From the NCBI GenBank assembly GCA_021414115.1, contig JAIOPD010000106.1, forward strand, positions 24,147 to 88,146: a DNA stretch of 64,000 bases, written 5' to 3'. A program made the position numbers and the translations under genes. The DNA comes from Planctomycetia bacterium. Its GTDB lineage: Bacteria; Planctomycetota; Planctomycetia; Pirellulales; UBA1268. Shown piece after piece: positions 193-19,121 of this stretch (position 1 is its first letter; every line of letters starts with the position of its first letter). The notes under the pieces were generated by a model. That model was not told where the DNA came from and ran no database searches. It saw only the letters and a program-made list of their open reading frames with translations.

Positions 193-378
193 TCACTCGT
201 CGCGAAGATCGTCGGATTGTTCCGATCGCAATGGTGGCGCGGCCGCGTCGTCGGCAGGCATGCCCATCGGGCCGCCTTCGCAGCAGGTTTCGAGGATCGC
301 CCCGCACTGGCGGCAGATGAGTTTGGCCCGGATCTCGTGGGTGTCACCGGCGCAGATCGGACAGCGGCAGAAACTCAT
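193..378 (-). CDS. small zinc-ribbon-like protein (61 aa) with acidic C-terminal tail
   Basis: Inner ATG (cat at 376-378) of track ORF 193..507(-). MSFCRCPICAGDTHEIRAKLICRQCG carries two CxxC pairs (CPIC, CRQC). The upstream part of the track ORF runs into the repeat element and was trimmed. No family recognised. Confidence 0.4.
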   Translation of the reverse strand: MSFCRCPICAGDTHEIRAKLICRQCGAILETCCEGGPMGMPADDAAAPPLRSEQSDDLRDE

Positions 379-389
379 AGCCGCGAGCA

Positions 390-628
390 TAGAGCGCATC
401 CGACTTTGGTGGAACGCCTGACGGGTGCCCGCGTGGTGGGTCGGGGCTGCCCGTGCCCTGAGAGCCGGACGCTCGCTTCGGGCATCCTTGCCCTCCGCTC
501 TCTGCACGCCGGCTGCGCTGCGCCATCCTGGCTTCGCGGGCCGCCGAGCCCGGCTCTCAGGGCACGGGCAGCCCCTCGCGGGTGTTCGTTGCTGGGGAAG
601 CCCGAAGCCGGAGGGACCCGCGAGCCAT
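390..628. repeat. Copy 1 of a structured intergenic repeat family: perfect 26-bp inverted arms 443-468 / 550-575 around an 81-nt loop, plus conserved flanks
   Basis: Shares four modules with the copies at 40019-40224 and 58511-58826: head TAGAGCGCATCCGAC(T/G)TTGGTGGA, arm GGGGCTGCCCGTGCCC..GAG.GCCGG, core CTGCGCT.CG.CATCCTG and tail GTTGC.GGGGAAGCCCG. Lies between the lutC stop (638) and the small ORF start (378). Confidence 0.8.
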
Positions 629-637
629 CGCCGAACA

Positions 638-1369
638 TCACCCGACGAGGATCACGAAGAGTTCCTTCGGGCCGTGGGCGCCAAGCACGAGAATCCGCTC
701 GATATCGCCGGTGCGGCTCGGACCGGTGATGAACGAGAGCATGCTCGGCATTCTCCCGGCGTGCTTCGTCCGAATCGCGTCGAGGGCGTCGCCGAGCGTG
801 GCCACGATCTGGTCGAGCGTGACGATCACGATATGGACATGCGGCAGGATCGAGAGCGCCCGACCGCCGCAGCTCGCACTCGACACCAGGATCGAGCCGG
901 TCTGGGCGATCGCCGCATCACAGGCCGTGATCCCGGCGTCGCAGGCCTCGAGGGCATCCTTGTCGAAGCTGGTGGAATCAAGGCGGTAGGAGTCGCAGCC
1001 AAGGGTCGCGGCCACGGGCTCGACGGCGGGGTGGGTATGCCAGGCCACCCGCTTCCAGCCCCGCTCACGGACGAGCGCCGCCACCTGCGCGGCGGCGGCG
1101 GTCAGATCCGCCGCCCGTTGAACTTCTGCCCGGAGTTTTCCGAGATTCTCGGTGAGGATCGCCAGTCGCTCCTCCGCGGTCTCGCCCCCGTCCGGGAGCC
1201 ACGGCCGCGCCACCTCCACCGGAAGAATCGTGAGGCTGTCCGGCCCGGCGGGTGCCGCCGCCACGGCCGCATGCGACTTCATGTGCGGCAGCGGCGCCGG
1301 AACACGGAGCGCCTCGCGAACCCGCGCGAGGATCGTGTCACGAGCCGTGGTGTCACCGCCTGCCGTCAT
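638..1369 (-). CDS. lutC: lactate utilization protein C (LUD domain, YkgG-like)
   Basis: Track ORF 638..1813(-) trimmed to ATG at 1369 (MTAGGDTTARDTILARV...), which overlaps the lutB stop by 4 nt. Third gene of a lutA-lutB-lutC arrangement. C-terminal ...SFITGPSRTGDIERILVLGAHGP is typical of LUD-domain proteins. Confidence 0.85.
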   Translation of the reverse strand: MTAGGDTTARDTILARVREALRVPAPLPHMKSHAAVAAAPAGPDSLTILPVEVARPWLPDGGETAEERLAILTENLGKLRAEVQRAADLTAAAAQVAALVRERGWKRVAWHTHPAVEPVAATLGCDSYRLDSTSFDKDALEACDAGITACDAAIAQTGSILVSSASCGGRALSILPHVHIVIVTLDQIVATLGDALDAIRTKHAGRMPSMLSFITGPSRTGDIERILVLGAHGPKELFVILVG

Positions 1370-2799
1370 GACCGCGCTCTCCACTGGCTGCGAAAACTTC
1401 GCGCCGGAGCGGCGGGCAGATCCCGCGTGGCCAGCCAGTCGCGGAGGAGCGGCGGGCGGAGTTTCTTCAGGAGCCAGAGCGACTTGCGAAACATCGCGCC
1501 GCCGGCCGCGAAGAGCCAGGGCCGGCTCGCCACCATCACGAACATCCGGTGCCCCAGCCGCTCGAGGCGGCTCGGCGACGTGGCAGCGGCGTTGCGGCGG
1601 TTGTGCAGGAGGTGGTGGTGGATGTCGATCCGCACCGGGCAGGCGTCGGTGCAGGCGCCGCAGAGGGAACTCGCTCCCGAGAGATGATTCCAGTCGGCCA
1701 GACCCCGCAGGTGCGGCGTGATTACCGAGCCGATCGGGCCCTGGTAGGTGGTGCCGTAGGTGAAGCCGCCCACGTTCTTGAAGATCGGACAGACGTTCAA
1801 GCACGCGCCGCAACGGATGCAGTGGAGGCTGTCCCGCTGCTCGGGATCGGCGAGGATCGCCGTCCGCGAGTTGTCGAGCAGCACGAGGTGCATCTCCTCG
1901 GGCCCGTCACACTCGCCCGGTCGTCGCGGGCCGGCGTAGAGCGTGTTGTAGCAGGTCATCGGCTGGCCGGCCCCGGCGGTGGCGAGCATCGGCAGAAGTA
2001 CGGCGAGATCGTCGAGATGCTCGACCACCTTCTCTATTCCCGAGATCGCAATGTGCACCCGCGGCAACGCCGCGGTCAGCCGGGCATTGCCCTCGTTCTC
2101 GGTGATCGAGATCTGGCCCGTCTCGGCGACCAAGAAGTTGGCCCCCGTGATCCCGACGTCGGCATCGACGTAGAGCCGGCGCATGTGCCGCCGGGCGATC
2201 ATCGTGAGCTCTTCGGGGCTGTCGGTCGGCGGCGTGCCGAGATGCTTGCCGAAGAGGTCGCTGATCTCCTCGCGACGGACGTGCATGCAGGGGAAGACAA
2301 AGTGATACGGCGGCTCGCCCCGGAGCTGCTGGATGAACTCGCCGAGGTCGCTCTCGACGACGCCGTAGCCGTCCTGCTCCAGGGCGGCGTTCAAGTGAAT
2401 CTCCTCGCTCGTCATGCACTTGCTCTTGATGACGGCCTTCGCCTTCGCGTCACGCAACAGCTCGAGGATGATCGTGCGGGCCTCGTCGGCGGTGCGGGCC
2501 CAGTGCACCCTGCCGCCGTTGGCCTCGAAGTTGGCCACGAACGTCGGGAGCAGCTCGTCGAGCCGGTTCACGGCCGACCACTTGGCGAGGCTGGCGGCAT
2601 CCCGGGCCTGCTCCCAGTCGCGAAAGCGGGCCTTCTGCGCGTCGCGACTGGTGTAGTAGCCGCCGAGGGCCTTGCGGACGAACGCCCGATGGCCCGTGTC
2701 GCGGACATGCTCCGCGGCATCGTGCAGGAACTTTTTCTTGGCGAGCCTGGGAGTCTCGGCCTCGAACGCGTGGGGTGTGGTGTCGGCGCCGGGCGTCAT
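1366..2799 (-). CDS. lutB: lactate utilization protein B (4Fe-4S iron-sulfur protein, YkgF-like)
   Basis: Track ORF 1366..3030(-) trimmed to ATG at 2799 (MTPGADTT...), a 4-nt overlap with the lutA stop. Two ferredoxin-type clusters are present: CIRCGACLNVCP and CGACTDACP. Confidence 0.9.
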   Translation of the reverse strand: MTPGADTTPHAFEAETPRLAKKKFLHDAAEHVRDTGHRAFVRKALGGYYTSRDAQKARFRDWEQARDAASLAKWSAVNRLDELLPTFVANFEANGGRVHWARTADEARTIILELLRDAKAKAVIKSKCMTSEEIHLNAALEQDGYGVVESDLGEFIQQLRGEPPYHFVFPCMHVRREEISDLFGKHLGTPPTDSPEELTMIARRHMRRLYVDADVGITGANFLVAETGQISITENEGNARLTAALPRVHIAISGIEKVVEHLDDLAVLLPMLATAGAGQPMTCYNTLYAGPRRPGECDGPEEMHLVLLDNSRTAILADPEQRDSLHCIRCGACLNVCPIFKNVGGFTYGTTYQGPIGSVITPHLRGLADWNHLSGASSLCGACTDACPVRIDIHHHLLHNRRNAAATSPSRLERLGHRMFVMVASRPWLFAAGGAMFRKSLWLLKKLRPPLLRDWLATRDLPAAPARSFRSQWRARS

Positions 2800-7964: not shown

Positions 7965-9095
7965 TCAGCGGGCCGGCACTGCGGCGGCGGCCAGGGCGGC
8001 CCGCCATTGCTCCGGGCTGGTCGCCGCGAGCCGGTCGCGATGCCCGCGGGCGGCGGTGAGCGGGCAGGCCGCGAGGTAGCCGGCAACGGCCCGGCGGACG
8101 AGTGGGTCGTCGGCCCCCAGGGAATCCCAGAGCATCGCGACCCGATCGCAATCCTCCCAGCGGCCGTAGCGGGCAAGGTCGATCGCGCAGTCGGCGGCCA
8201 CGGCCGGATTCACGAGCAGATCGGCCGTCGCGGTCGCGACCAGCTGGCGAGGCACACGCTCCGCAAGACTTTCCCAGGCAAACCGCAGCGCCGCCAGCGC
8301 ATGCCGCGCGTCGCCGGGCCGTGTGTCGGCGGCGAACAGGCCCCTGCTCCGGAGGCGTTCGAGTCCTGCTCCGCCCTCGGCGACGAGCACTCCCGCGAGG
8401 ATCCCGTCGAAGCCGGCCCGCAGATCGTTTGCCGGCGCCACGACTGCCGCGTGGAGGGCGTCGAGGCATCGCCGCCGCACAGCGGCGTCGGCAGTGCGGT
8501 CGGCCACGATGCCCAGAGCCAGTCCAAAGAAGCCGCGGCGGCTTTGGTCGAGGTTCGGCTCCCGCACCCAGGCCGCCAGTCGCACGGGATCGAGCGCATC
8601 GGCGGCCTCTCGCACCGCGGCGAATGGCGCGAGGCCAAACTCCGTGAAGGCGTCGGCGGCGATCGCGGGATTCGGATGCTCGAGGCGGGATGCGAACCAG
8701 CGGAGCCTGCTGGCCGCCGGCTCTTCGACGGCGGGCGCCGCGGCGACGTGACCGATCAGCGCCTCGTCGGCGGCGATGGCTTCCCATGAGACCGTGGCAT
8801 CGTGCCGCGTGCCGAAGAGCAGGGCCGTGCCCTCGATGGCCGAGGGCACCCGGGCCGGGAGCATGCCCGCGGCGGGGTCGCCCGCGCCGCGCAGGACCAC
8901 CGCCATGGTGAAACGCTGGACGAGCAGGCCGTCGGGGTCGCGGGCTGCCGACGCTGCGGATTCACCCACGGCGACCATGTCGGCGGTGTCACGACGTTCG
9001 GCGAGCGACCGGCCCACCACGCCGCAGAACGGGCAGGCAAAAGTCGCCGCCATTCCGAGCCAGGCGGCGATCGTGAGCAGGCAGCGGATCGGCAT
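7965..9095 (-). CDS. secreted helical-repeat (HEAT/ARM-like) protein with a CPFC motif right after the signal peptide; paralog B
   Basis: Track ORF 7965..9725(-) trimmed to ATG at 9095 ([25 protein letters not shown]...), which overlaps the AIM24 stop by 1 nt (TGATG). Aligns along its length with the 13409-14917 protein, for example [14 protein letters not shown] vs DAYDEFAIAPYADV, and AGYLAACPL vs VNYLRACPL. Confidence 0.6.
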
Positions 9096-9763
9096 CAGCC
9101 TGCGGCCGCCGTGGCCGGGTCGGAGTTTAGTCGGGCCCGCCAGTAGGGCGTGGTGCAGAGGAGCAGTTTCCCGGTGCCGCGATAGCAGTAAGCGAGCTTC
9201 TGGCCCGACAACCAGTAGGCCAGCCACGACCGCGCGGGCCGGCGGACCGAGAGCGTGATGCCACTGGTGTGGGCGACGACATACGGCCCGTCGACGATCA
9301 CCTGGTCGTTCGTCAGTTCGACCTCTTCGACGGGGCCGGGGACCGAGAGCACCACCTGCCCCTCGCCCTTCAGCGCGGTCTTGTACCAGAAGAGTCCCTG
9401 GTCGGCCCAATACGCGGTCATGAATCGCTCCCGATGCACCGAGAGCTTCACCTCGCCGTCGCTCGCCCAGAAACACTTCATGTCGAGGATCCACCGCTCG
9501 CCCGGCCGGATCGGCATGATGTGGAAGCCGCCCAGCGAGGAATCGAGATACACCGTGCCCGTGCCGTGGTAGCGGGGCCGCAGCAGTGACTCGTCGGAGA
9601 ACAGCGACTCCCACCAGGCCTTGAGGCTCGGGAAGGGCACGTCCATCGTGATCGCGCCCTTGAAGTGGTTGAGCGCGCCCCGCTCCGCACGGACGTCGTC
9701 GTCGTCGAGTCCGACCTTCACCCACCGCATGCCCTCGGTGTGTTCAACCTCAAACGTCGCCAT
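9095..9763 (-). CDS. AIM24/DUF124 family protein
   Basis: Track ORF 9095..10408(-) trimmed to ATG at 9763 (MATFEVEHTEGMRWVKV...). Family-like segments: GTGTVYLDS..GGFHIMPIRPGERWIL, GEGQVVLSVPGPVEEVEL, YRGTGKLLLCT. Start lies 14 nt inside the upstream gene. Confidence 0.6.
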   Translation of the reverse strand: MATFEVEHTEGMRWVKVGLDDDDVRAERGALNHFKGAITMDVPFPSLKAWWESLFSDESLLRPRYHGTGTVYLDSSLGGFHIMPIRPGERWILDMKCFWASDGEVKLSVHRERFMTAYWADQGLFWYKTALKGEGQVVLSVPGPVEEVELTNDQVIVDGPYVVAHTSGITLSVRRPARSWLAYWLSGQKLAYCYRGTGKLLLCTTPYWRARLNSDPATAAAG

Positions 9764-11060
9764 CGATGTCGACCTCCGCACCGCGGGTGATGCCCCCCTT
9801 CGTCCAGTCGACGCTCCAGCCGGGAAAGGCGATCTCCGGATAGGGATCGGGATCGATCGGGGCCGGCGAGGTGTGCACGATGTCGAACTGCCGGTCGCCG
9901 CGGATGCGGCCGATCCGGCAGAACTTCGTCGTGTGCTGGGTCTTGGGATCGAGACGGACCGGGCCCCCCGGGCCGGCGAACTCGAGCCCCTCGCGGAACA
10001 CCTGCCGCACCGCCTCGGTCTCGAACGAACCGGCCTTCTCGACGGCCTGTTTCCAGAGGTGCACCAGACACCAGTCGGGCTCCATCGGGTCGCCCGTGAC
10101 GCGGTCGTGGCCGAACTCGCGGCGAAAGCCGGCGATCCATGCGCGATTGGCCGGCGTGTCGAGGCTCTGGAAGTAGCACGACACGGCGTAGTGACCCTTG
10201 ACGTGCCCTGGCAGCAGGCTTCGCAGTTCGTCCTCGGCGATGCTCGTGGAGACGACCGGCACCGTGGCCGGATCGACCTTCGCCTCGGCGAGCGCCTCAA
10301 AGAGGCCGATGTTCGAGTCGCCGTTGACCGTATTGAGCACGCAGTCGGCGCCGGATTCCCGAATCTGCTTGACGACGCCGGAGAAGTCGCGGTCGCCGAG
10401 CGGCACATAGGCCGTGCCCACGGGCTTCAGGCTCTTCGCCGCGAGATACTTCTTCGCGATGAAGTTGGCCGTCCGAGGATAGACGTAGTCCGAGCCGACG
10501 AGGAAGATTTTTTTCCTGAGCCCGCCGGCCGCGCTCGCGAGCCAATCGAGTGCCGGCAGGATCTGCTGGTTGGGCACCATGCCGCCGTAGACGACGAAGG
10601 GGGACGACTCGTTGCCCTCGTACTGCACGGAATAGAAGAGGAGCTTCTTCGCCTCCTCGAAGATCGGCAGCACGGCCTTGCGGCTGGTGCTCGTCCAGCA
10701 GCCGAACACGGCGACGGAGCCTTCATCGAGGAGTCGTCGGGCCCGCTTCGGGAACAGGTCCACCCGCGACCGCGGGTCGGGGGCGTGGGGCACGATCTGC
10801 CGGCCGAGGAGTCCGCCGGCCGCGTTGATCTGCTCGAAGGCGTGGAGCTCGATGTCGCGGAGCCCCGTCGCACTGATGGCTAGCGGCCCGGTCTGCGAGT
10901 GGAGGAGACCCACGTTCACCGTCTTGGCGCGGGGCGGGATGCCGAGCGAGCAGCCGGCGAAGAGTGCCGGCGACAGGGCCCGGGCCGCCGCGAGCGTGGC
11001 CGCGGTCCCCCGGCGGAGGGCGTCGCGGCGTGAGAACCCGCTCCCTGGTGTGTCGCTCAT
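9750..11060 (-). CDS. Tat-signal lipoprotein, type-1 periplasmic binding protein of the UrtA/AmiC (urea or short-chain amide) kind; no cognate permease or ATPase genes nearby
   Basis: SRRDALRRGTAATLAAARAL...FAGC gives a twin-arginine motif plus lipobox. The body reads like UrtA/FmdD/AmiC proteins (VGLLHSQTGPLA, FGCWTSTSRKAVLP, LFYSVQYEG, GSDYVYPRTAN, ...QFDIVHTSPAPIDPDPYP). Confidence 0.75.
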   Translation of the reverse strand: MSDTPGSGFSRRDALRRGTAATLAAARALSPALFAGCSLGIPPRAKTVNVGLLHSQTGPLAISATGLRDIELHAFEQINAAGGLLGRQIVPHAPDPRSRVDLFPKRARRLLDEGSVAVFGCWTSTSRKAVLPIFEEAKKLLFYSVQYEGNESSPFVVYGGMVPNQQILPALDWLASAAGGLRKKIFLVGSDYVYPRTANFIAKKYLAAKSLKPVGTAYVPLGDRDFSGVVKQIRESGADCVLNTVNGDSNIGLFEALAEAKVDPATVPVVSTSIAEDELRSLLPGHVKGHYAVSCYFQSLDTPANRAWIAGFRREFGHDRVTGDPMEPDWCLVHLWKQAVEKAGSFETEAVRQVFREGLEFAGPGGPVRLDPKTQHTTKFCRIGRIRGDRQFDIVHTSPAPIDPDPYPEIAFPGWSVDWTKGGITRGAEVDIDGDV

Positions 11061-11863
11061 TCGTCTTCCATCCGCTTGTAGAGAACTTCGAAGGGCTCCG
11101 CCGAGATGCTCACGTCGCCCCGGAACGGCTGGTTCATGTCGAAGATCAGGTGCATCATCGTGCCGAGGTAGGCGGCCAGGATGCCGCCGAGCAGCAGCTG
11201 CGTGATGAACCGCATGTCAAAGAGCCAGCAGATCGCGATGTTGAGGATCGCGCCCAGGATCATCACGTACCACATCGAGGACGGAAGCGACGACTTCACG
11301 GATAAGAGCCGCATCTGCCGCGCCTCCAGAAACTCGTTCAACTGCCGCAGCACCTCGGCGTGGAGGATCTGCTCGGCCGGCGTCTGTGGCTCAAAGTCGA
11401 GGAGCTTGTCGTAGAACGCCGCGGCGCGGATCGTGCCCTCCTCCGGGATGATGCCCCGCTGCTGCAGCGGCCAGGCATATTTGATGACGTACCGCGTGTA
11501 GTCGCGGAGCAGCCAGCGGAGGTTTTGCCGGTGGGGCTCCGGGTAGCGGGAGACGTCTTCATAGAGCGCCGAAAGCGATGCCGCCTCCCGGGTCACGTTC
11601 GCCCCCGCCTCGGCCACGTTTTGGTAGGCGGTGACGGCGATCAGGCCGAGCAGCAGGCCGTAGAACACGCAGAAGCAGGAGAGCACGTAGCCGACGATGT
11701 CGTTGGAGCCGGCGGTGGATTTGACGAACTGCCGCAGGATCGGCCGCAGCAGGATCGAGCCGGCCCAGTAGAAGCCGACGAACGTGCCGATGAAGAGCAG
11801 CGACAGCCGGAAATGGGGAATGTCATAGAGCCAATACCACGACTCGGGCGAGAACATGTGCAT
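11057..11863 (-). CDS. integral membrane protein, DUF4239-like
   Basis: Track ORF 11057..12085(-) trimmed to ATG at 11863 (MHMFSPESWYW...; ATG at 11857 is also possible). Two N-terminal and two C-terminal hydrophobic helices flank a helical soluble region (REAASLSALYEDVSRYPEPHRQNLRWLLRDY...). Its stop overlaps the next gene's start by 4 nt. Confidence 0.55.
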   Translation of the reverse strand: MHMFSPESWYWLYDIPHFRLSLLFIGTFVGFYWAGSILLRPILRQFVKSTAGSNDIVGYVLSCFCVFYGLLLGLIAVTAYQNVAEAGANVTREAASLSALYEDVSRYPEPHRQNLRWLLRDYTRYVIKYAWPLQQRGIIPEEGTIRAAAFYDKLLDFEPQTPAEQILHAEVLRQLNEFLEARQMRLLSVKSSLPSSMWYVMILGAILNIAICWLFDMRFITQLLLGGILAAYLGTMMHLIFDMNQPFRGDVSISAEPFEVLYKRMEDE

Positions 11864-12156
11864 GCTTGGTGGCCGCCGGGCGGTGCCCTCCACGGATCGT
11901 ATCGACGCTGCCGCGATCGTAGCAGCATCCCACCTGCTCGGGCCAGCAGCGGGAAGCGACCGTGCCTGGCGCGGCTTCGACACCGTTCGAGCCCCGGCCG
12001 GCTGCGGGACGGCATGAGGTTCCTCGCGGGAGTATTTCGCATGGCGCCTGGCGAGGGTTTGACCTCCGACGGGCGAAATCCTCAACGCTCGTCACGCTCA
12101 CGCCGATCCCTTCGCCTCGTCCGGCGAGGGGCGGGGAGACGGGCGGTTGACGCGGT

Positions 12157-12705
12157 CTATTGCACGCTTTCCCCGTCGAGCGCGTAGATCGCGAGGTGTT
12201 TTCCGTCGGGGCCGCGGAGTTCCTCGACCTTGAACCGACCCGCCACGGCCACGGGCCGGATCGAAAAATCGGCGGTTCTGCCCGGCTGCATGCGGACGAC
12301 GACGCAGTCATGCAGGGCGGCGCCGGGGCCGAAGCAGCATTCCTGGTTGTCGCGGACGAGCACGAACTGCGTCAGGCCGCTCTGCTGGAAACTCGGAAGG
12401 ATGTAGCCGCGAATCCGCACCCGCTCTTGTTCGAGCGCCGTGACTCTCTTGGGAAGCAGATCGCGGGTGAAGGGGTCGCCCTTCGGCATCTCGAGCTTGA
12501 TGTCATCGAACGTGATCTCGCGGGGCTGCCGCGAGTCCGCCGGCAGACGCTCCGCGGAGGGTGGCGGGGAGGCGGATGGTTTCTCGACGAGCCGGGGCGC
12601 CGCGGCACGGTCGGCAGGTGTCCCGCCGCCACAGCCGGCGACGAGCAGGGTGAGGACCCATGGGGCCCACCAGTCCTTCGCGTGCAGGCGTCTGGTTGCG
12701 TCCAT
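12157..12705 (-). CDS. lipoprotein with DUF3299-like C-terminal domain (vicinal CC motif)
   Basis: Lipobox LLVAGC. C-terminal GYILPSFQQSGLTQFVLVRDNQECCFGPGAALHDCVVVRM...VAGRFKVEE matches the pattern I associate with DUF3299. Start is 1 nt after the upstream stop. Confidence 0.6.
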   Translation of the reverse strand: MDATRRLHAKDWWAPWVLTLLVAGCGGGTPADRAAAPRLVEKPSASPPPSAERLPADSRQPREITFDDIKLEMPKGDPFTRDLLPKRVTALEQERVRIRGYILPSFQQSGLTQFVLVRDNQECCFGPGAALHDCVVVRMQPGRTADFSIRPVAVAGRFKVEELRGPDGKHLAIYALDGESVQ

Positions 12706-12706
12706 G

Positions 12707-13399
12707 TCACCGCACGAACGCGTTGTCGAGGTGGTAGAGCACGCCGCCGGCGAGGTCCGCGGTGCCCATGGGCTGCACCCGAAACCGGCCCGCGACCTTC
12801 GTCAGTCGGGGGGTGAAGTCGATGCCCCTCGGCTCGGCGAGTTGCACCAGCACGCGGTCGGTGATCTTCGGATTGCCGCCGAAGCAGCAGTCGCCCTGGT
12901 CGCGGACGAGCAGAAACTGCACGAGTCCGTGCTGCTCCTTCCCCGGATAGATGTAGCCCTTGAGGAGCACGTTGTGCCCGTCGAGCGCCCGGGCCGCGTC
13001 GGGCACGCTCGTCGGCGGATCACCCTCGGCGGGCTGAAGCATCGCATAGCTGAGCCGCTCGAAGCCCTCGGGAAGTTCGGCGGCGTATTCGCGGGCGAGC
13101 GACACGAGGCCGCCGACCAGCACGATCGCAGAGACCGCAAGCGCCCCGGTCGCCAGCGGCGTGCCCGTCAGGTCGAGCGGCCGAGTGGCGATGTCGCGCA
13201 GGGCGACGAGCGCGAGCGCGATGCCGATCGCCGGCACCGCGGCGAACCACCAGCCGAAGAAGACGAGCGGCGAGACCAAAGCGACGGCCGCGGCGGCGAT
13301 GGCCGCTCCCGACAGGGCGCGGTAGGCCTCGCCGTTGTCACGGGCGGTGGCGCCCGGGTGGGAGGTTCGCGACGGCGAATCGAAGAGGCCAGTGCCCAT
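12707..13399 (-). CDS. membrane-anchored DUF3299-like protein (N-terminal TM helices plus the same CC-motif domain)
   Basis: Hydrophobic segments AAIAAAAVALVSPLVFFGWWFAAVPAIGIALALVAL and LATGALAVSAIVLVGGLVSLA. These are followed by GYIYPGKEQHGLVQFLLVRDQGDCCFGGNPKITDRVLVQL...VAGRFRVQP, paralogous to 12157-12705. Confidence 0.6.
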   Translation of the reverse strand: MGTGLFDSPSRTSHPGATARDNGEAYRALSGAAIAAAAVALVSPLVFFGWWFAAVPAIGIALALVALRDIATRPLDLTGTPLATGALAVSAIVLVGGLVSLAREYAAELPEGFERLSYAMLQPAEGDPPTSVPDAARALDGHNVLLKGYIYPGKEQHGLVQFLLVRDQGDCCFGGNPKITDRVLVQLAEPRGIDFTPRLTKVAGRFRVQPMGTADLAGGVLYHLDNAFVR

Positions 13400-13408
13400 G
13401 GGAGCGGT

Positions 13409-14917
13409 TTAGCGGTCCCCGGCCGGAACGGGCCGCATCGCCGCGCGGGAAACGATGGCGATCGCGAGGACCACGGCCGCCCAGAGGAGCCATTTCCAGC
13501 GGCGGCTCACGGTGGCCGCGGTCTCCCGCTCAGGCTGTGAAGCGTCACGGCCGGGCACGTCGTCGGTGGCGTCGTCGTCGCCCAGCACCGGAGCCACGGC
13601 CAGGGAGCCGGGCGATCCTTCGGCTGGGGCGGTGATTGGTTCGTTCGGCCCGCGGGGGCCCGCGTTGTCATCCTCGTCGCCGGACGGTGTGGCCGCCGTG
13701 GTGCCGGAAGCGGTGAGGCCGGCAATGCCGGCGAGCGTCGCAGCCCGGCGGACAGCCTCGGGGTCGATCGTCTCCAGTTCCTTGACCGCGGCCGCGGCCT
13801 CTGGCAGGGGACAGGCCCGGAGGTAGTTCACGATCGGTTCGCGGACGAAAATGTTGTCGGCCTTCGCCTCCTTGAAGAGCGTCACGAGCGTGTCGACGGC
13901 CGACCAGTCCTGCCAGCGGGCGAGATCGGCGATCACGAGGTCGGCGAGTTTCGGTTCCTCGAGCAAGAGCCGCAGCGAGGCGAGCACGCGGTCGCGGGGC
14001 ACGAGATCGGACTCCTCCCCGAGGAACCGCAGCGCCATCACCGCGGCATAGGTCTCGGTGAACGGCACCTCGCGGGGCATGCCGTCGGCGGACGTGCGGT
14101 CGAGGAACAGCCGGTCGACGAGGTCGAGAGCCTGCGGGCCCTCGAGCGCCACGTAGCAGGCGATCAGCGCGTCGAGCCCGCTGCGGGCCTCGGCTTGCTC
14201 AGGCGAGAGGCCGGTGCCCGCGAGGAGTTTTTCGATCCGCTCGGCGTCGTCTTTCGATCCGCAGACACCGAGCATTGTTGCATAGAGCCGCCGACGATTG
14301 GCCTGCACCTTCGGGTCTTCGATCCAGGCGAGCAGTTTCGCCGGGTGCATCTGCTCCTTGATGCTGCGGACGTCCGCGTAGGGGGCGATGGCGAACTCGT
14401 CGTAGGCGTCGCGGGCCAGCGTCTCGTCTTCGTCTTCGAGATGCTCCTGGAAGAAGGCGAGCCGCTCGGGCCCCTTCTCCGGCAGTTCGCCGAGTTTGCG
14501 GATGTAGGCCACCGCCCGGTCGCTGACCCGCACCGGGCTCGACCAGACGAGGTCCGGCGGCTCCACGCCCATGAGCAGAAAGAGCATGCCGACCGGCTTC
14601 TCCTCGAGCATGATCGTCTCGATCGGCTGGGGATCTCCGCCCGTCAGGCCCGCCTCGGCCACGAGGTCGGCACCCTTGAGCACCTCGACCACCTCGAACT
14701 TGCCCTTGGGGAGCGGCCCCTCGGCCCGCGGCGACAGGGCGCCGGCCGGCGGCGGCTCGACGAGCTTGGCGATCACCGCCGCCTGGCTCTGGGCGATTTC
14801 CTGGGCGAACGTCAGCGACACCGCGGAGCAGAAAGGGCAGGCACGAGCTGATCCCGCGACCGCCACGATCGCAACGCTGACGACAACCGGCACGAAGCAG
14901 CGGATCAGTGGATTCAT
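13409..14917 (-). CDS. secreted helical-repeat (HEAT/ARM-like) protein with CPFC motif, acidic/Pro-rich linker and C-terminal TM anchor; paralog A
   Basis: Signal peptide ...VAVAGSARACPFCSAV. Helical repeat body, a low-complexity tail (TPSGDEDDNAGPRGPNEPITAPAEG...) and a terminal helix WKWLLWAAVVLAIAIV. Confidence 0.6.
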   Translation of the reverse strand: MNPLIRCFVPVVVSVAIVAVAGSARACPFCSAVSLTFAQEIAQSQAAVIAKLVEPPPAGALSPRAEGPLPKGKFEVVEVLKGADLVAEAGLTGGDPQPIETIMLEEKPVGMLFLLMGVEPPDLVWSSPVRVSDRAVAYIRKLGELPEKGPERLAFFQEHLEDEDETLARDAYDEFAIAPYADVRSIKEQMHPAKLLAWIEDPKVQANRRRLYATMLGVCGSKDDAERIEKLLAGTGLSPEQAEARSGLDALIACYVALEGPQALDLVDRLFLDRTSADGMPREVPFTETYAAVMALRFLGEESDLVPRDRVLASLRLLLEEPKLADLVIADLARWQDWSAVDTLVTLFKEAKADNIFVREPIVNYLRACPLPEAAAAVKELETIDPEAVRRAATLAGIAGLTASGTTAATPSGDEDDNAGPRGPNEPITAPAEGSPGSLAVAPVLGDDDATDDVPGRDASQPERETAATVSRRWKWLLWAAVVLAIAIVSRAAMRPVPAGDR

Positions 14918-14933
14918 GAGATCATTGTAGCCG

Positions 14934-16322
14934 TCACCCGAGCCACTTCGCGACGTCGGTCCGATAGGCCGCCAGCGCCGGGAGCAGCGCGGCCAGGATT
15001 GCCAGGGCGATTAGGAACGGCACGAGGAGCAGTTCGGCGGCAGGGGCCGCCGACAGCAGGCTCGCCGAGACGCCGGCATTGGTGGTGATCAGGGGGCCGA
15101 TGGCGGCGACCAGCATGTGGCCCAGCGCCCAGCCGACGAGGCCACCCCCCACCGCCAGCAGCACCGCCTCGATGAGCACCGTGGCAAGGACGTGGCTGCG
15201 GCGGGCGCCCAGGGCCCGCATCACGGCGACGTCTCGGCTCCTCTCGAGCGACGAGCCGACCATGCTCACGAGGATGCCGATTGCCGACACGATCACGACG
15301 AGCGTCGTCACGAGCAGGAGCAGCAGTTCCAGCGGCCGCACAAAGAGGCCGAGGAGCAGGCTGATCTCGCGGATCGGCTCGGCGGCCTGACCATCGCGGC
15401 CCTCGTTGATCGCGGTCCTCAGCCCCATCGCCGTGAGCTCGGCAGGAAGGCCGGGCAGCGCGGCCGTCTCGACGAGGATCGCCGTCACCTCGCGCTGGTT
15501 GGTCGGGAGCGGCGCGGGGGATGCCGGATGGTCCTCCTCGGCCGTCGGCTTCACCGCCACCCCCTCGCCCTCGACGGGCTTCGCATGTCCCTCCTGCAGG
15601 TAGAAGCCCTCCATGTTCACATACACGCCTCGATCAACGGGCGTGTCAGTCCGCGCGAGGATGCCGGTGACCGTGAACGGGTCGTGCACGAGGCCGTCGT
15701 CTGCGCCGTGCGTGGGGGCGAACGGGTCGCCCGCTTTGAGCCCGAGTTTCGCGGCGACGTCGCAGCCGAGCACGCCGCCAAAAAACTCGTCGTCGCGGAA
15801 GTTGCGGCCGGAGGCGAACGCGAAGGGCCGCAGCTCGGAGCGGGCATCGGCCAGGCCGACGCTCCGCCGCAGCCAGCGGCCGAGCCCCGCAGGCGTGCCC
15901 CCTCCGCCCCAGGTGAGGCTGTCGAAATAGGCGGCATTCGTGCCGACGACACGGAAGCCCCGAAAATAGTCCCCCATGCAGATCGGGACGGCGGTTTGCA
16001 CGCTGCCGGCATATCGTCCCGCGGCGCCGTCGGCCCGCGCCGTGGCCGGCAGAAACTCCTCGTAGAAGGCCCAGGAGATGTTCTCGATCGGCTTGCTGAT
16101 CAGATAGACGCTGTTCAAGACCAGCTGCAGCGGGCTCCCCTTCGCCCCCACGATTATGTTGTAGCCCAGCCCGGAGCCGGAGTTGAACGCCTGCTTGACG
16201 ATGTCGCCGATCACGAGCGTGGAGACGACGAGCGCCACGCCGAGGGCGAGGGAAAGCGCCGTGAGGCCGCTCGTCAGGAGCCGCTGCCGGATGTTGCGCC
16301 AGGCGATACCGAACAATGACAT
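14934..16322 (-). CDS. ABC transporter permease, FtsX/MacB-LolC type with a large periplasmic domain
   Basis: TM1 (LLTSGLTALSLALGVALVVSTLV), then a soluble loop of about 270 aa, then three C-terminal TM helices, the typical FtsX-domain layout. Sits 19 nt downstream of the ATPase gene. Confidence 0.8.
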   Translation of the reverse strand: MSLFGIAWRNIRQRLLTSGLTALSLALGVALVVSTLVIGDIVKQAFNSGSGLGYNIIVGAKGSPLQLVLNSVYLISKPIENISWAFYEEFLPATARADGAAGRYAGSVQTAVPICMGDYFRGFRVVGTNAAYFDSLTWGGGGTPAGLGRWLRRSVGLADARSELRPFAFASGRNFRDDEFFGGVLGCDVAAKLGLKAGDPFAPTHGADDGLVHDPFTVTGILARTDTPVDRGVYVNMEGFYLQEGHAKPVEGEGVAVKPTAEEDHPASPAPLPTNQREVTAILVETAALPGLPAELTAMGLRTAINEGRDGQAAEPIREISLLLGLFVRPLELLLLLVTTLVVIVSAIGILVSMVGSSLERSRDVAVMRALGARRSHVLATVLIEAVLLAVGGGLVGWALGHMLVAAIGPLITTNAGVSASLLSAAPAAELLLVPFLIALAILAALLPALAAYRTDVAKWLG

Positions 16323-16341
16323 GGGCGAGCCGTTCGTGGGG

Positions 16342-17028
16342 TCAGCCGTGGTGGGTCGCAGCGCGGTTGAAGTCTTCGAGCCGGAGCCGCCGGGGAAACC
16401 GGGCGGCGACCTCGGGGGAGTGCGTCACGACCAGGAGCGCGACGTCCTGCTCGGCGCAGGTGTTTTTCAGCAGCTCGATCACCTGATCCTGATGCGCCGT
16501 GTCGATGCTCGCCGTCGGCTCGTCGGCGAGGATCACCCGCGGCCGATTGGCGAGCGCACGGGCCACCGCCACCCGCTGCTGCTGGCCGATCGAGAGCTCG
16601 CCCGGCTTGTGATGGAGGCGGTGGGAGAGCCCCACCGAGGCGAGCAGATCGGCGGCCCGCCAGCGGTCGGGCCTGCCCGACCCGAACGACATCGCCACGA
16701 GCACGTTTTCCAGCGCCGTGAACCCCGGCAGGAGGTTGAACTGCTGGAACACGAGGCCGAGCGTGTCGGCCCGCAGCCGGTCGGTCGCGGCTTCGCCCAG
16801 CCGTGTGAGGTCGTGGCCATCGACGACGACCCGTCCCGCGTCGGGCCGCATGATCCCGGAGATCACGTGGAGGAGCGTCGACTTGCCGGAGCCGCTCTGG
16901 CCGGTGAGGGCGCACTGTTCCCGCTCGGCGACCGTGAAGGCGTCGATGTCGAGCACCGCCACCGTCTCTCCGCCCGGCATGGCAAACGACTTCTTGACCT
17001 GCTCGAGTTCGATGACGGGGGTGGGCAT
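16342..17028 (-). CDS. ABC transporter ATP-binding protein (MacB/LolD-like)
   Basis: Track ORF trimmed to ATG at 17028 ([15 protein letters not shown]...). Walker [10 protein letters not shown], signature LSIGQQQR, Walker B VILADEPT. Confidence 0.9.
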
Positions 17029-17060
17029 GCCATGGATTCTAGCGGTTCCACGGCGGGCGA

Positions 17061-17090
17061 TTGAGCGGTCGCCGCGCGGGGGTGTATCAT
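17061..17090 (+). promoter_or_regulatory. candidate sigma-70-type promoter for gap (TTGAGC-N18-TATCAT)
   Basis: AT-rich hexamers stand out in the GC-rich divergent spacer 17029-17173. An AGGAG Shine-Dalgarno at 17163-17167 sits 6 nt before the GTG start. Motif match only. Confidence 0.3.
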
Positions 17091-17173
17091 CCCGGCCCCG
17101 CCTGACAAGGCATCGGCGTCCGCGAAGGAGCGGAACGGCCGGGCCAGTCCGTTTCGACCCCAGGAGACTCGCC

Positions 17174-18200: not shown

Positions 18201-19121
18201 TTACCTGGTTTCTGCTCGTACCGCCGTGGCGGTGATCGTGGCGTCGCCCTCGAGGGCCATGCCGTCGGCGCCGGTCATGCGGACGATCACGCGGACGTGA
18301 TCGCCCGCTGGCGGCGCCGCCGTCCAACGCAGCGGGAAGTGCATGCCACGCAGCCGGGTCGTGCGGCGGAAACGAGCGGCGGCCTGCTCCGCGGGAATGG
18401 TCCACGTTGCGAGCGGCGTCGCGGGGTCGGCGGCGTCGAAGACAGTGATCGACACGGCGGCCTGCGCGGCCACGAGTTTCTCGTCCGCGTCGCGGGGCTC
18501 GAACGTGACGTTGATGCCGTCGCTCCGGCCGTCGCCGTTGTCGTCGAAGCAGCCGGTCGTGGTGGTGGTGACGACGAGCCGGACTGGCCGTCCGTCCGAG
18601 AGCGGCTGGTCGTATGACACCGGGACGGCCACCGGTGTCGCTGGCGGCGCAGCTGCGCCGCTGGGTGCCGGCAGCGACAACGGGCTCGGATCGGTCGTCG
18701 AGGTGGGCGTCGCCGGCAGCGGCGGAATGTTGTCGAGGGCGGGTGGCGCGAGGCCCCCTCGCGGCGCCGCCGCGGGGGCGCGGATGGCCTCGGGGATTTC
18801 GATGGCCGGCGGCACGGCGACGGGCGCGGGCACGGCGGCGGGCCGTGATCGGCCCGCCCGTGATCCCTTCAACGGATCAGCCTCCGTCACGCCCAGCTGC
18901 CGCCGCAGACTCGCGTTCTCCACGGCGACGGAGTCGAGCCGCGCACACTTGTCCTGGAGGTCGTCCTGCAGTTGGTAGATCTGGTCTTCCTGGTAGCGGA
19001 GTTCCCGCTCCAGCAACTGCTGGTTGAGGTCGCTCTTGCAGCCGGCAAGCGCGAGACAGCAGACGAGCGCCACGCAGGGAATGCGATCCCCGCGCGGCCC
19101 GAGCGTTTCCTGTGACAGCAT
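18201..19121 (-). CDS. lipoprotein with N-terminal coiled coil, Pro/Ala-rich linker and C-terminal beta domain; function unknown
   Basis: Lipobox CCLALAGC, then LNQQLLERELRYQEDQIYQLQDDLQDKCARLDSVAVENASLRRQL, a proline-rich stretch and a C-terminal globular part. Convergent with gap (10-nt gap). Confidence 0.5.
   Translation of the reverse strand: MLSQETLGPRGDRIPCVALVCCLALAGCKSDLNQQLLERELRYQEDQIYQLQDDLQDKCARLDSVAVENASLRRQLGVTEADPLKGSRAGRSRPAAVPAPVAVPPAIEIPEAIRAPAAAPRGGLAPPALDNIPPLPATPTSTTDPSPLSLPAPSGAAAPPATPVAVPVSYDQPLSDGRPVRLVVTTTTTGCFDDNGDGRSDGINVTFEPRDADEKLVAAQAAVSITVFDAADPATPLATWTIPAEQAAARFRRTTRLRGMHFPLRWTAAPPAGDHVRVIVRMTGADGMALEGDATITATAVRAETR

Follow-up and report, generated by a model that had tools for sequence, protein, structure and literature searches.

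Operons of the Zrg/PA4063-PA4066 type (zrgABCDE of Vibrio, PA4063-PA4066 of Pseudomonas) encode a histidine-rich, metal-binding DUF2796 protein, a separate ATP-binding cassette (ABC) ATPase, a MacB-type permease and a DUF3299 protein, and contain no gene for an adaptor. They are repressed by zinc via Zur, and few genes in either genus are induced more strongly under zinc starvation. Import and export have both been argued as their function, and the DUF3299 protein (ZrgE/PA4066) is without an assigned role (PMC9817125, PMC9820375, PMC11481552). Here, we analysed a related operon in a stretch of 64,000 nucleotides, referred to as the window, from a Planctomycetia bacterium of the order Pirellulales (lineage UBA1268; GenBank assembly GCA_021414115.1, contig JAIOPD010000106.1, positions 24,147 to 88,146). 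In this operon, the ABC core and a DUF3299 lipoprotein are accompanied by a second, membrane-anchored DUF3299 paralogue and by two secreted proteins, CPFC1 and CPFC2, that carry a CPFC motif in front of an oligonucleotide/oligosaccharide-binding (OB)-like domain and an ARM/HEAT solenoid. The core is of a known kind, and the cysteine-based accessory set together with the CPFC-OB-ARM protein family is new. The literature search turned up no planctomycete system like it.

Five of the genes lie on the minus strand and encode, in order of transcription, a split nucleotide-binding ABC ATPase (16342-17028), a permease of 462 amino acids (14934-16322), CPFC1 with 502 amino acids (13409-14917), the membrane-anchored DUF3299-like protein D3299tm with 230 amino acids (12707-13399) and the DUF3299 lipoprotein D3299lipo with 182 amino acids (12157-12705). 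The intergenic gaps, read off the sequence, are 19, 16, 9 and 1 nt. The G+C content of the operon region (0.66-0.72) equals that of its surroundings. Because each of the five genes has hundreds to thousands of homologues and the cysteine motifs are invariant, we regard the open reading frames as real genes and not as chance products of a genome with 70% G+C. A first, sequence-only reading of the window had proposed an operon of these five genes, and its gene coordinates and gaps were exact. The reading overlooked a sixth member, however, namely the gene for CPFC2 (7965-9095, minus strand), which encodes a soluble CPFC1 paralogue of 376 amino acids. What it had said about the proteins was borne out by the profile, hydropathy and structure analyses given below: an ATPase and an FtsX/MacB-type permease with a periplasmic loop of about 270 amino acids, a 502-amino-acid secreted helical-repeat protein with an A-CPFC mature start, an acidic and Pro-rich linker and a C-terminal transmembrane segment, and two proteins sharing a C-terminal domain with an invariant vicinal cysteine pair, one held by N-terminal transmembrane helices and the other a lipoprotein. 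Its suggestion of an undescribed envelope system does not wholly hold, since the combination of a split MacB-type ABC transporter with a DUF3299 protein and no adaptor has already been published (PMC9817125, PMC9820375, PMC11481552).

The Walker A, signature and Walker B motifs are readable in the ATPase sequence, which matches the Pfam profile ABC_tran with 117 bits. Its top NCBIfam matches are the LolD, YbbA, FtsE, DevA and MacB types, all of them under the equivalog cut-offs, and it is 40% identical to PA4064 (E 8e-48), the counterpart of ZrgB. The permease matches the Pfam profiles FtsX (PF02687, 51.8 bits, cut-off 25.5) and, with residues 18-264, MacB_PCD (PF12704, 40.6 bits, cut-off 27), and hydropathy predicts four transmembrane segments and a periplasmic loop of ~275 amino acids. 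The three features of a type VII ABC transporter that were checked are present: an FtsX domain, a large periplasmic core between the first and second transmembrane segments and an ATPase of the LolD/MacB/FtsE type. With PA4065, the counterpart of ZrgC, the permease can be aligned over its full length including the periplasmic domain (30% identity, 145 bits, E 2e-43). Matches to the solved MacB, LolC and FtsX structures are confined to the C-terminal membrane region and reach at most 43 bits, with MacB being the best. By these scores, none of the Lol, FtsX or MacB structures comes near PA4065 in similarity to the permease. An identity as LolCDE or FtsEX was ruled out, as the lolCE profile scored 26.7 bits against a cut-off of 362 and the LolD profile 196.5 against 307.75.

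The permease residues H205, H213, D118, D230 and R231 are kept in the planctomycete proteins and in both proteobacterial homologues compared (Pseudomonas and Phaeobacter), and C115 and H246 are conserved in planctomycetes only. H205, H213, C115 and H246 are candidate residues for a site at which the motor itself would hold a ligand. In agreement with the sequence-only reading, no gene for a MacA/HlyD-type adaptor or an outer-membrane channel was found in the operon, in the immediate neighbours that were scanned or in the orthologous operons of loci L001 and L083-L085; the scan for such genes covered no other part of the 64-kb window. The accessory proteins may stand in for the adaptor, as that reading suggested. 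A search of the window with the CzcCBA proteins of locus L002 gave no match to a Czc-type adaptor or channel either. The permease thus shares the FtsX and MacB periplasmic core domains, and the ATPase the LolD/MacB type, with MacAB-TolC, but ATPase and permease are separate proteins here, genes for a MacA/HlyD adaptor and a TolC-like channel are missing from the operon, and the similarity to MacB itself is limited to the C-terminal transmembrane region. LolCDE, FtsEX, HrtBA and BceAB resemble the window's system as adaptor-less permeases of the MacB fold that act by mechanotransmission together with periplasmic or membrane partners. Their partner proteins are unrelated to those encoded here, however, and the Lol and FtsX scores of the window proteins are far under the cut-offs.

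The two DUF3299 proteins differ in how clearly they can be assigned. D3299lipo, which has the lipobox LVAGC and is named 'DUF3299 domain-containing protein' by NCBI, exceeds the Pfam cut-off for DUF3299 (PF11736, 26.2 bits, cut-off 22). Its profile matches PDB entry 4hsp, deposited as 'a DUF3299 family protein (PA4066) from Pseudomonas aeruginosa', with an E value of 2.9e-5, and the same entry, an OB fold, is the top Foldseek match of its AlphaFold2 model (E 1e-7). D3299tm remains under the Pfam cut-off (DUF3299, E 0.007) and matches 4hsp with an E value of 3e-3. Its C-terminal domain is nonetheless 36% identical to that of D3299lipo (E 4e-23), which makes it a paralogue. Three N-terminal hydrophobic segments were detected by hydropathy, and its orthologues have a precomputed match to PF13828, a DUF4190-type region. 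In both proteins, the shared domain carries a vicinal cysteine pair, within ECCFGPG in D3299lipo and DCCFGGN in D3299tm. CCFG is present in 69/69 orthologues of D3299lipo, as VRDN[QML]ECCFG, and in 80/80 orthologues of D3299tm, as [VC]RD[QN]G[DE]CCFG, one of which ends at a contig edge after the first cysteine. H132 and C134 of D3299lipo are nearly invariant as well. In the D3299lipo model, the vicinal pair sits in a flexible segment outside the fold core with low predicted local distance difference test (pLDDT) values.

The canonical DUF3299 motif of Pseudomonas, Phaeobacter and Rhizobium, GAC-x-H-x-PPP, is replaced by CCFG in the window proteins. The first cysteine of the pair is aligned with the canonical cysteine, and the histidine position holds a phenylalanine. 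Therefore, the same site shifts from Cys/His to Cys/Cys where the partner protein shifts from DUF2796 to CPFC. The association of DUF3299 with ABC genes is not universal, because in Rhizobium leguminosarum (plasmid pRL22b6, locus L088, 4803-5360) a lone canonical DUF3299 gene has a zinc-dependent alcohol dehydrogenase gene as its neighbour and no ABC genes in its vicinity.

CPFC1 has no Pfam family above the cut-off and no NCBIfam family, and searches against the PDB gave no credible match (best E 0.036 with a profile of 143 sequences and 2.3 with the single sequence, both short alignments at chance level). The AlphaFold2 model, which was built on 143 homologues, has a pLDDT of 85.7 with a core above 95. 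It consists of a signal peptide, an arm with the CPFC motif, a beta domain (residues 37-131), a solenoid (133-404), a disordered acidic and Pro-rich linker (407-467) and a transmembrane helix (472-494). The arm is disordered in the model, with pLDDT values below 50 for residues 23-32. Foldseek matched the solenoid to designed armadillo repeats (probability 1.0, E 2e-4), which characterises it as ARM/HEAT-like. This assignment rests on structure only, because the sole Pfam match, HEAT_2, is sub-threshold (21.7 bits, cut-off 27.7). The beta domain showed a weak match to the OB fold of agrin NtA/N-TIMP (E 0.017, TMt 0.51-0.53), and the mature protein would start with a cysteine as TIMPs do. In contrast to TIMPs, the disulfide partners are absent from CPFC1 and the cysteine arm is modelled as disordered. 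CPFC2 aligns with residues 5-390 of CPFC1 at 28% identity (E 6e-32) and has the same signal peptide and ACPFC start, without the linker and the transmembrane anchor.

The cysteines of these proteins are very strongly conserved. C27, P28, F29, C30, C369 and P370 of CPFC1 are invariant in 143 sequences, and an alignment of 40 sequences with 25-60% identity has only 14 invariant columns, which include C27 and C30; the CPFC motif is unchanged down to ~35% identity. In CPFC2 orthologues, CPFC is found in 45/48 sequences, and C344-P345, the equivalent of C369-P370 that contains the 'ACP' cysteine, is conserved in 98%. CxxC is absent from 20 of the 150 best representatives of the CPFC family, most of which are N-terminally truncated, and three of which have an N-terminus with a degenerate motif. 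Three conventional explanations of the motif were ruled out. A thioredoxin or glutaredoxin fold does not apply, as the modelled motif is part of a disordered arm that an OB-like domain follows, and no thioredoxin Pfam match was obtained; a heme attachment site (CxxCH) would need a histidine after the motif, which is missing; and a lipobox is not present, as the residues before the cysteine (A-R-A and T-F-A) are unlike L-[AS]-[GA]-C. Judged from the sequence only, cleavage by signal peptidase I is the more likely processing route for both CPFC proteins. The family comprises at least 2,200 clusters at 50% identity with E values of 1e-3 or lower, 613 of them at 1e-30 or lower, and relatives are encoded in at least 576 genome stretches of a collection with one genome per species. 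Taxonomic statements refer to the best 80, 120 or 150 matches per search. Among the matches listed, the named family members belong to Pirellulales or to unclassified Planctomycetota, and nearly all of the 80 CPFC loci that were kept are labelled as Planctomycetota/Pirellulales; a few other labels of metagenome-assembled genomes are taken to be mistaken. In the databases and papers that were searched, the CPFC-OB-ARM family is new and uncharacterised.

We scanned 85 related loci and scored synteny in 66 loci with sufficient flanking sequence. The DUF3299 pair adjoins CPFC1 in 66/66 loci, and the ABC pair directly adjoins in 53/66. Eight more loci have the ABC pair at a different place, moved away by an insertion (seven loci) or an inversion (one locus), and in five it is absent from the available flank. 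Synteny of the accessory genes with the ABC pair and conservation of the CPFC and CC cysteines, which the sequence-only reading had named among its checks, thus both turned out in its favour. Judged by this gene order, the operon is strongly conserved in Pirellulales planctomycetes, and it appears to be a core feature of their envelope. The CPFC2 gene lies directly 3' of D3299lipo in 12 loci, including the most distant ones (L083-L085, 43-47% identity), in which gene calling produced a compact operon of six genes. The ancestral unit therefore consists of ATPase, permease, CPFC1, D3299tm, D3299lipo and CPFC2. In the window and 34 other loci, a three-gene insert separates D3299lipo from CPFC2, and the insert is absent in the 12 loci mentioned above. 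In the window, it covers 9098-12085 on the minus strand and encodes, according to Pfam, a Bestrophin-like protein (11057-11905), a Peripla_BP_5/6 lipoprotein (9750-11060) and an AIM24 protein (9098-9772). Its stops and starts overlap, and base 9095 belongs to both the stop codon of AIM24 and the start codon of CPFC2. The insert is lineage-specific and probably not part of the system.

Other insertions bring different genes to the operon. In loci L002 (1420-7693), L019, L022 and L035, a CusA/CzcA-family heavy-metal resistance-nodulation-division (RND) pump with a CzcB-like adaptor and an outer-membrane factor is located between the permease gene and CPFC1, so that the ABC genes are separated from the rest of the operon and the outer-membrane factor gene adjoins CPFC1. 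These four loci are near-identical and represent one insertion event. A second pump of the same family is encoded divergently upstream of CPFC1 in L056 (2807-7657), L045 and L028, with no ABC genes in the available flank. The two pumps are 31% identical to each other and score 1092 and 711 bits for TIGR00914 (cut-off 701). Unrelated heavy-metal RND pumps have been inserted next to CPFC1 twice, independently, in separate lineages.

Taken together, the permease, the ATPase and the lipoprotein match PA4065, PA4064 and PA4066, respectively, and thus the ABC core with its DUF3299 protein is a homologue of the Zrg/PA4063-PA4066 system. Both have a split ATPase, a MacB-type permease and a DUF3299 protein in one operon without an adaptor, and they share the histidine pair of the permease. 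The proteobacterial operons used for comparison came from annotated records of Pseudomonas and Phaeobacter, and in Phaeobacter the operon adjoins a gene for a Fur-family regulator. The planctomycete operon differs in having two CPFC proteins instead of DUF2796, which was detected neither in the window (tblastn with the Pseudomonas and Phaeobacter proteins) nor in L083-L085, as well as an extra membrane-anchored DUF3299 paralogue. It also has CCFG in place of GAC-x-H-x-PPP and a permease that gained the planctomycete-specific C115, and it belongs to Planctomycetota and not to Proteobacteria. Compared with Zrg, cysteine-type ligands thus take the place of histidine-type ones in several components at once. 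This distant and very widespread relative can be read as a natural experiment on Zrg, in which the DUF3299 site changed from Cys/His to Cys/Cys and the histidine-rich partner was replaced by CxxC proteins. This paired change of site and partner suggests that the DUF3299 loop is where the system does its work and that its logic is the hand-over of a ligand. The operon offers a comparative handle on the mechanism of Zrg/PA4063-PA4066 and defines a large planctomycete protein family, in an order whose envelope biology is poorly known.

We propose as the most likely explanation, with a probability of about 40%, that the six proteins form an ATP-driven periplasmic relay for a thiol-binding metal. 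Mechanotransmission in the periplasm is established for MacB-type transporters, and the ATPase and permease would act as such a type VII 'mechanotransmitter', which carries no substrate across the inner membrane and uses ATP to move the large periplasmic domain of the permease. This movement would act on four partners. Two of them are the DUF3299 OB proteins, one membrane-anchored and one a lipoprotein, each presenting a vicinal Cys-Cys pair on a loop. The other two are the CPFC proteins, one anchored by a transmembrane helix and one soluble, with a CPFC arm, an OB-like domain and an ARM/HEAT solenoid that contains a third conserved cysteine. The cysteine pairs would pass a thiol-binding metal (Zn, Cu(I) or Cd) by ligand exchange between the soluble or lipid-anchored carriers and the membrane-anchored ones. 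A hand-over chain is suggested because each of the two families has one anchored and one mobile paralogue. In mercury resistance, the periplasmic carrier MerP (CxxC) hands Hg to the membrane protein MerT (vicinal CC), and the hand-over imagined here may be compared to this step, with the ABC motor forcing loading or release. The likeness to MerP/MerT is an analogy in motif logic only, a CxxC paired with a CC; the window proteins have neither heavy-metal-associated (HMA) domains nor homology to MerT, and mer has no ABC motor.

Several observations support a metal as the substrate. It is favoured because the homologous operons are zinc-regulated and have the histidine-rich DUF2796 protein and, in Phaeobacter, a Fur-family regulator as neighbours, because the DUF3299 site and its partner protein change their ligand type together, and because the periplasmic domain of the permease keeps the histidine pair H205/H213. 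It is further supported because two CusA/CzcA-family RND pumps landed beside CPFC1, and because C27/C30, C369-P370 and CCFG are invariant, with CPFC and CC placed on flexible segments of low pLDDT. A bolder formulation of the same idea would see the six genes as an unrecognised envelope machine, in which the ABC motor powers anchored and mobile cysteine-pair carriers that move a soft metal or a covalently thiol-bound substrate, with CPFC-OB-ARM as a new family of periplasmic carriers and DUF3299/ZrgE as the acceptor site of the relay. We consider this wider claim doubtful. If true, a reading of the system as a cysteine-pair relay would reveal the long-sought function of DUF3299/ZrgE.

A number of points weigh against a metal relay. 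Metal binding by the CPFC and DUF3299 proteins is inferred, and the periplasmic cysteine pairs may simply be oxidised to disulfides. The model system itself is disputed between zinc import and export of pyochelin-cobalt. Moreover, the crystal structure of PA4066 shows no evident zinc binding (PMC11481552), and zrgE knock-outs in V. cholerae had no phenotype (PMC9820375). In the genomic context, the second RND pump is only just over the TIGR00914 cut-off. The permease-CPFC1 junction is a recurrent insertion site, because in L048 (3409-7892, plus strand) PSCyt1/PSCyt2/PSD1 and DUF1501 proteins, which are not related to metals, are encoded there. In L042, a gene for a likewise metal-unrelated protein of 733 amino acids with a C-terminal Thioredoxin_7 domain (298-2499, plus strand) is located directly upstream of CPFC1, and the ABC pair is missing from the flank. 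The operon is also surrounded by the housekeeping genes gap, clpP, tig and sucCD. In 52 loci, the sequence ahead of the ATPase gene (120 nt) was inspected by eye; it showed promoter-like elements only, among them those of the divergent gap gene, and no recognisable metal-responsive operator. Near the operon there was likewise no sign of a Zur-like operator, a palindrome or a metal-sensing regulator, with no known planctomycete Zur motif to guide the search.

The thioredoxin neighbour in L042 and the spacing of the CPFC motif, which is the classic redox-active spacing of glutaredoxin-like motifs, would fit a thiol-disulfide redox machine instead. In such a machine, an unfolded envelope protein would lie in the groove of the ARM/HEAT solenoid and swap disulfides with the CPFC arm and the CC pair, and the ABC motor would drive its release or extraction; apocytochrome c is handled in a comparable manner by CcmH (CxxC) and CcmI (TPR). 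Extended peptides are the usual ligands of ARM/HEAT solenoids, both cysteine motifs are located on flexible segments, and the housekeeping setting would suit a role in biogenesis. Nevertheless, CPFC is not embedded in a thioredoxin fold but in a disordered arm before the OB-like domain, and genes for a DsbD/CcdA- or DsbB-type electron conduit are missing from the operon. The proteobacterial homologues are zinc-regulated and use Cys/His sites and histidine-rich partners with no redox motifs, and the thioredoxin neighbour is a single case. We therefore regard a redox function as unlikely. The housekeeping neighbourhood and the wide distribution of the operon in Pirellulales could also speak for envelope biogenesis by mechanotransduction as in LolCDE or FtsEX. 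A protein or lipoprotein would then be extracted or activated by the motor, with the DUF3299 and CPFC proteins serving as scaffolds or as partners under its regulation and the cysteines having a structural or regulatory part. Type VII ABC systems that work without an adaptor (LolCDE, FtsEX, HrtBA, BceAB) are well established, LolD is the best NCBIfam match of the ATPase (196 bits), and one of the partners is a lipoprotein. This explanation is improbable in our view, as the Lol and FtsX equivalog scores are far under their cut-offs, the permease is much nearer to PA4065 than to the Lol, FtsX or MacB structures, and DUF3299 is an OB fold and not LolA-like. Structural disulfides would also leave unexplained why invariant cysteine pairs lie on flexible loops of low confidence.

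Finally, for the homologous Pseudomonas pump PA4064/PA4065 a MacB-type export of cobalt-pyochelin has been proposed (PMC11481552), and earlier work argued for zinc import. By extension, the planctomycete system might export a metallophore or another small molecule from the periplasm, with the accessory proteins as receptors and an outer-membrane channel encoded elsewhere. The Czc-type outer-membrane factor gene that adjoins CPFC1 in four loci would be in line with this but, as these loci are near-identical, it reflects a single insertion event. No metallophore biosynthesis genes, adaptor or channel were found in or beside the conserved operon, and an exporter would not need invariant cysteine pairs, which makes this the kind of function we would hardly expect here.

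The operon and gap are transcribed divergently from a shared intergenic region (17029-17100), in which the sequence and a consensus scan revealed promoter-like elements on both strands. On the minus strand, a -10-like TAGAAT (17041-17036) ends 7 nt before the ATG of the ATPase gene, and because of this short distance the ATPase mRNA may be leaderless. On the plus strand, the gap gene is preceded by a promoter-like TTGAGC-18-TATCAT within 17061-17090. Both elements recur in related loci. On the other side of gap, between this gene and clpP-clpP-tig, the window encodes an Ala/Pro-rich putative lipoprotein of 306 amino acids (18201-19121, minus strand) with the motif LAGC and no Pfam match, and L001 has a similarly sized gene at the corresponding place.

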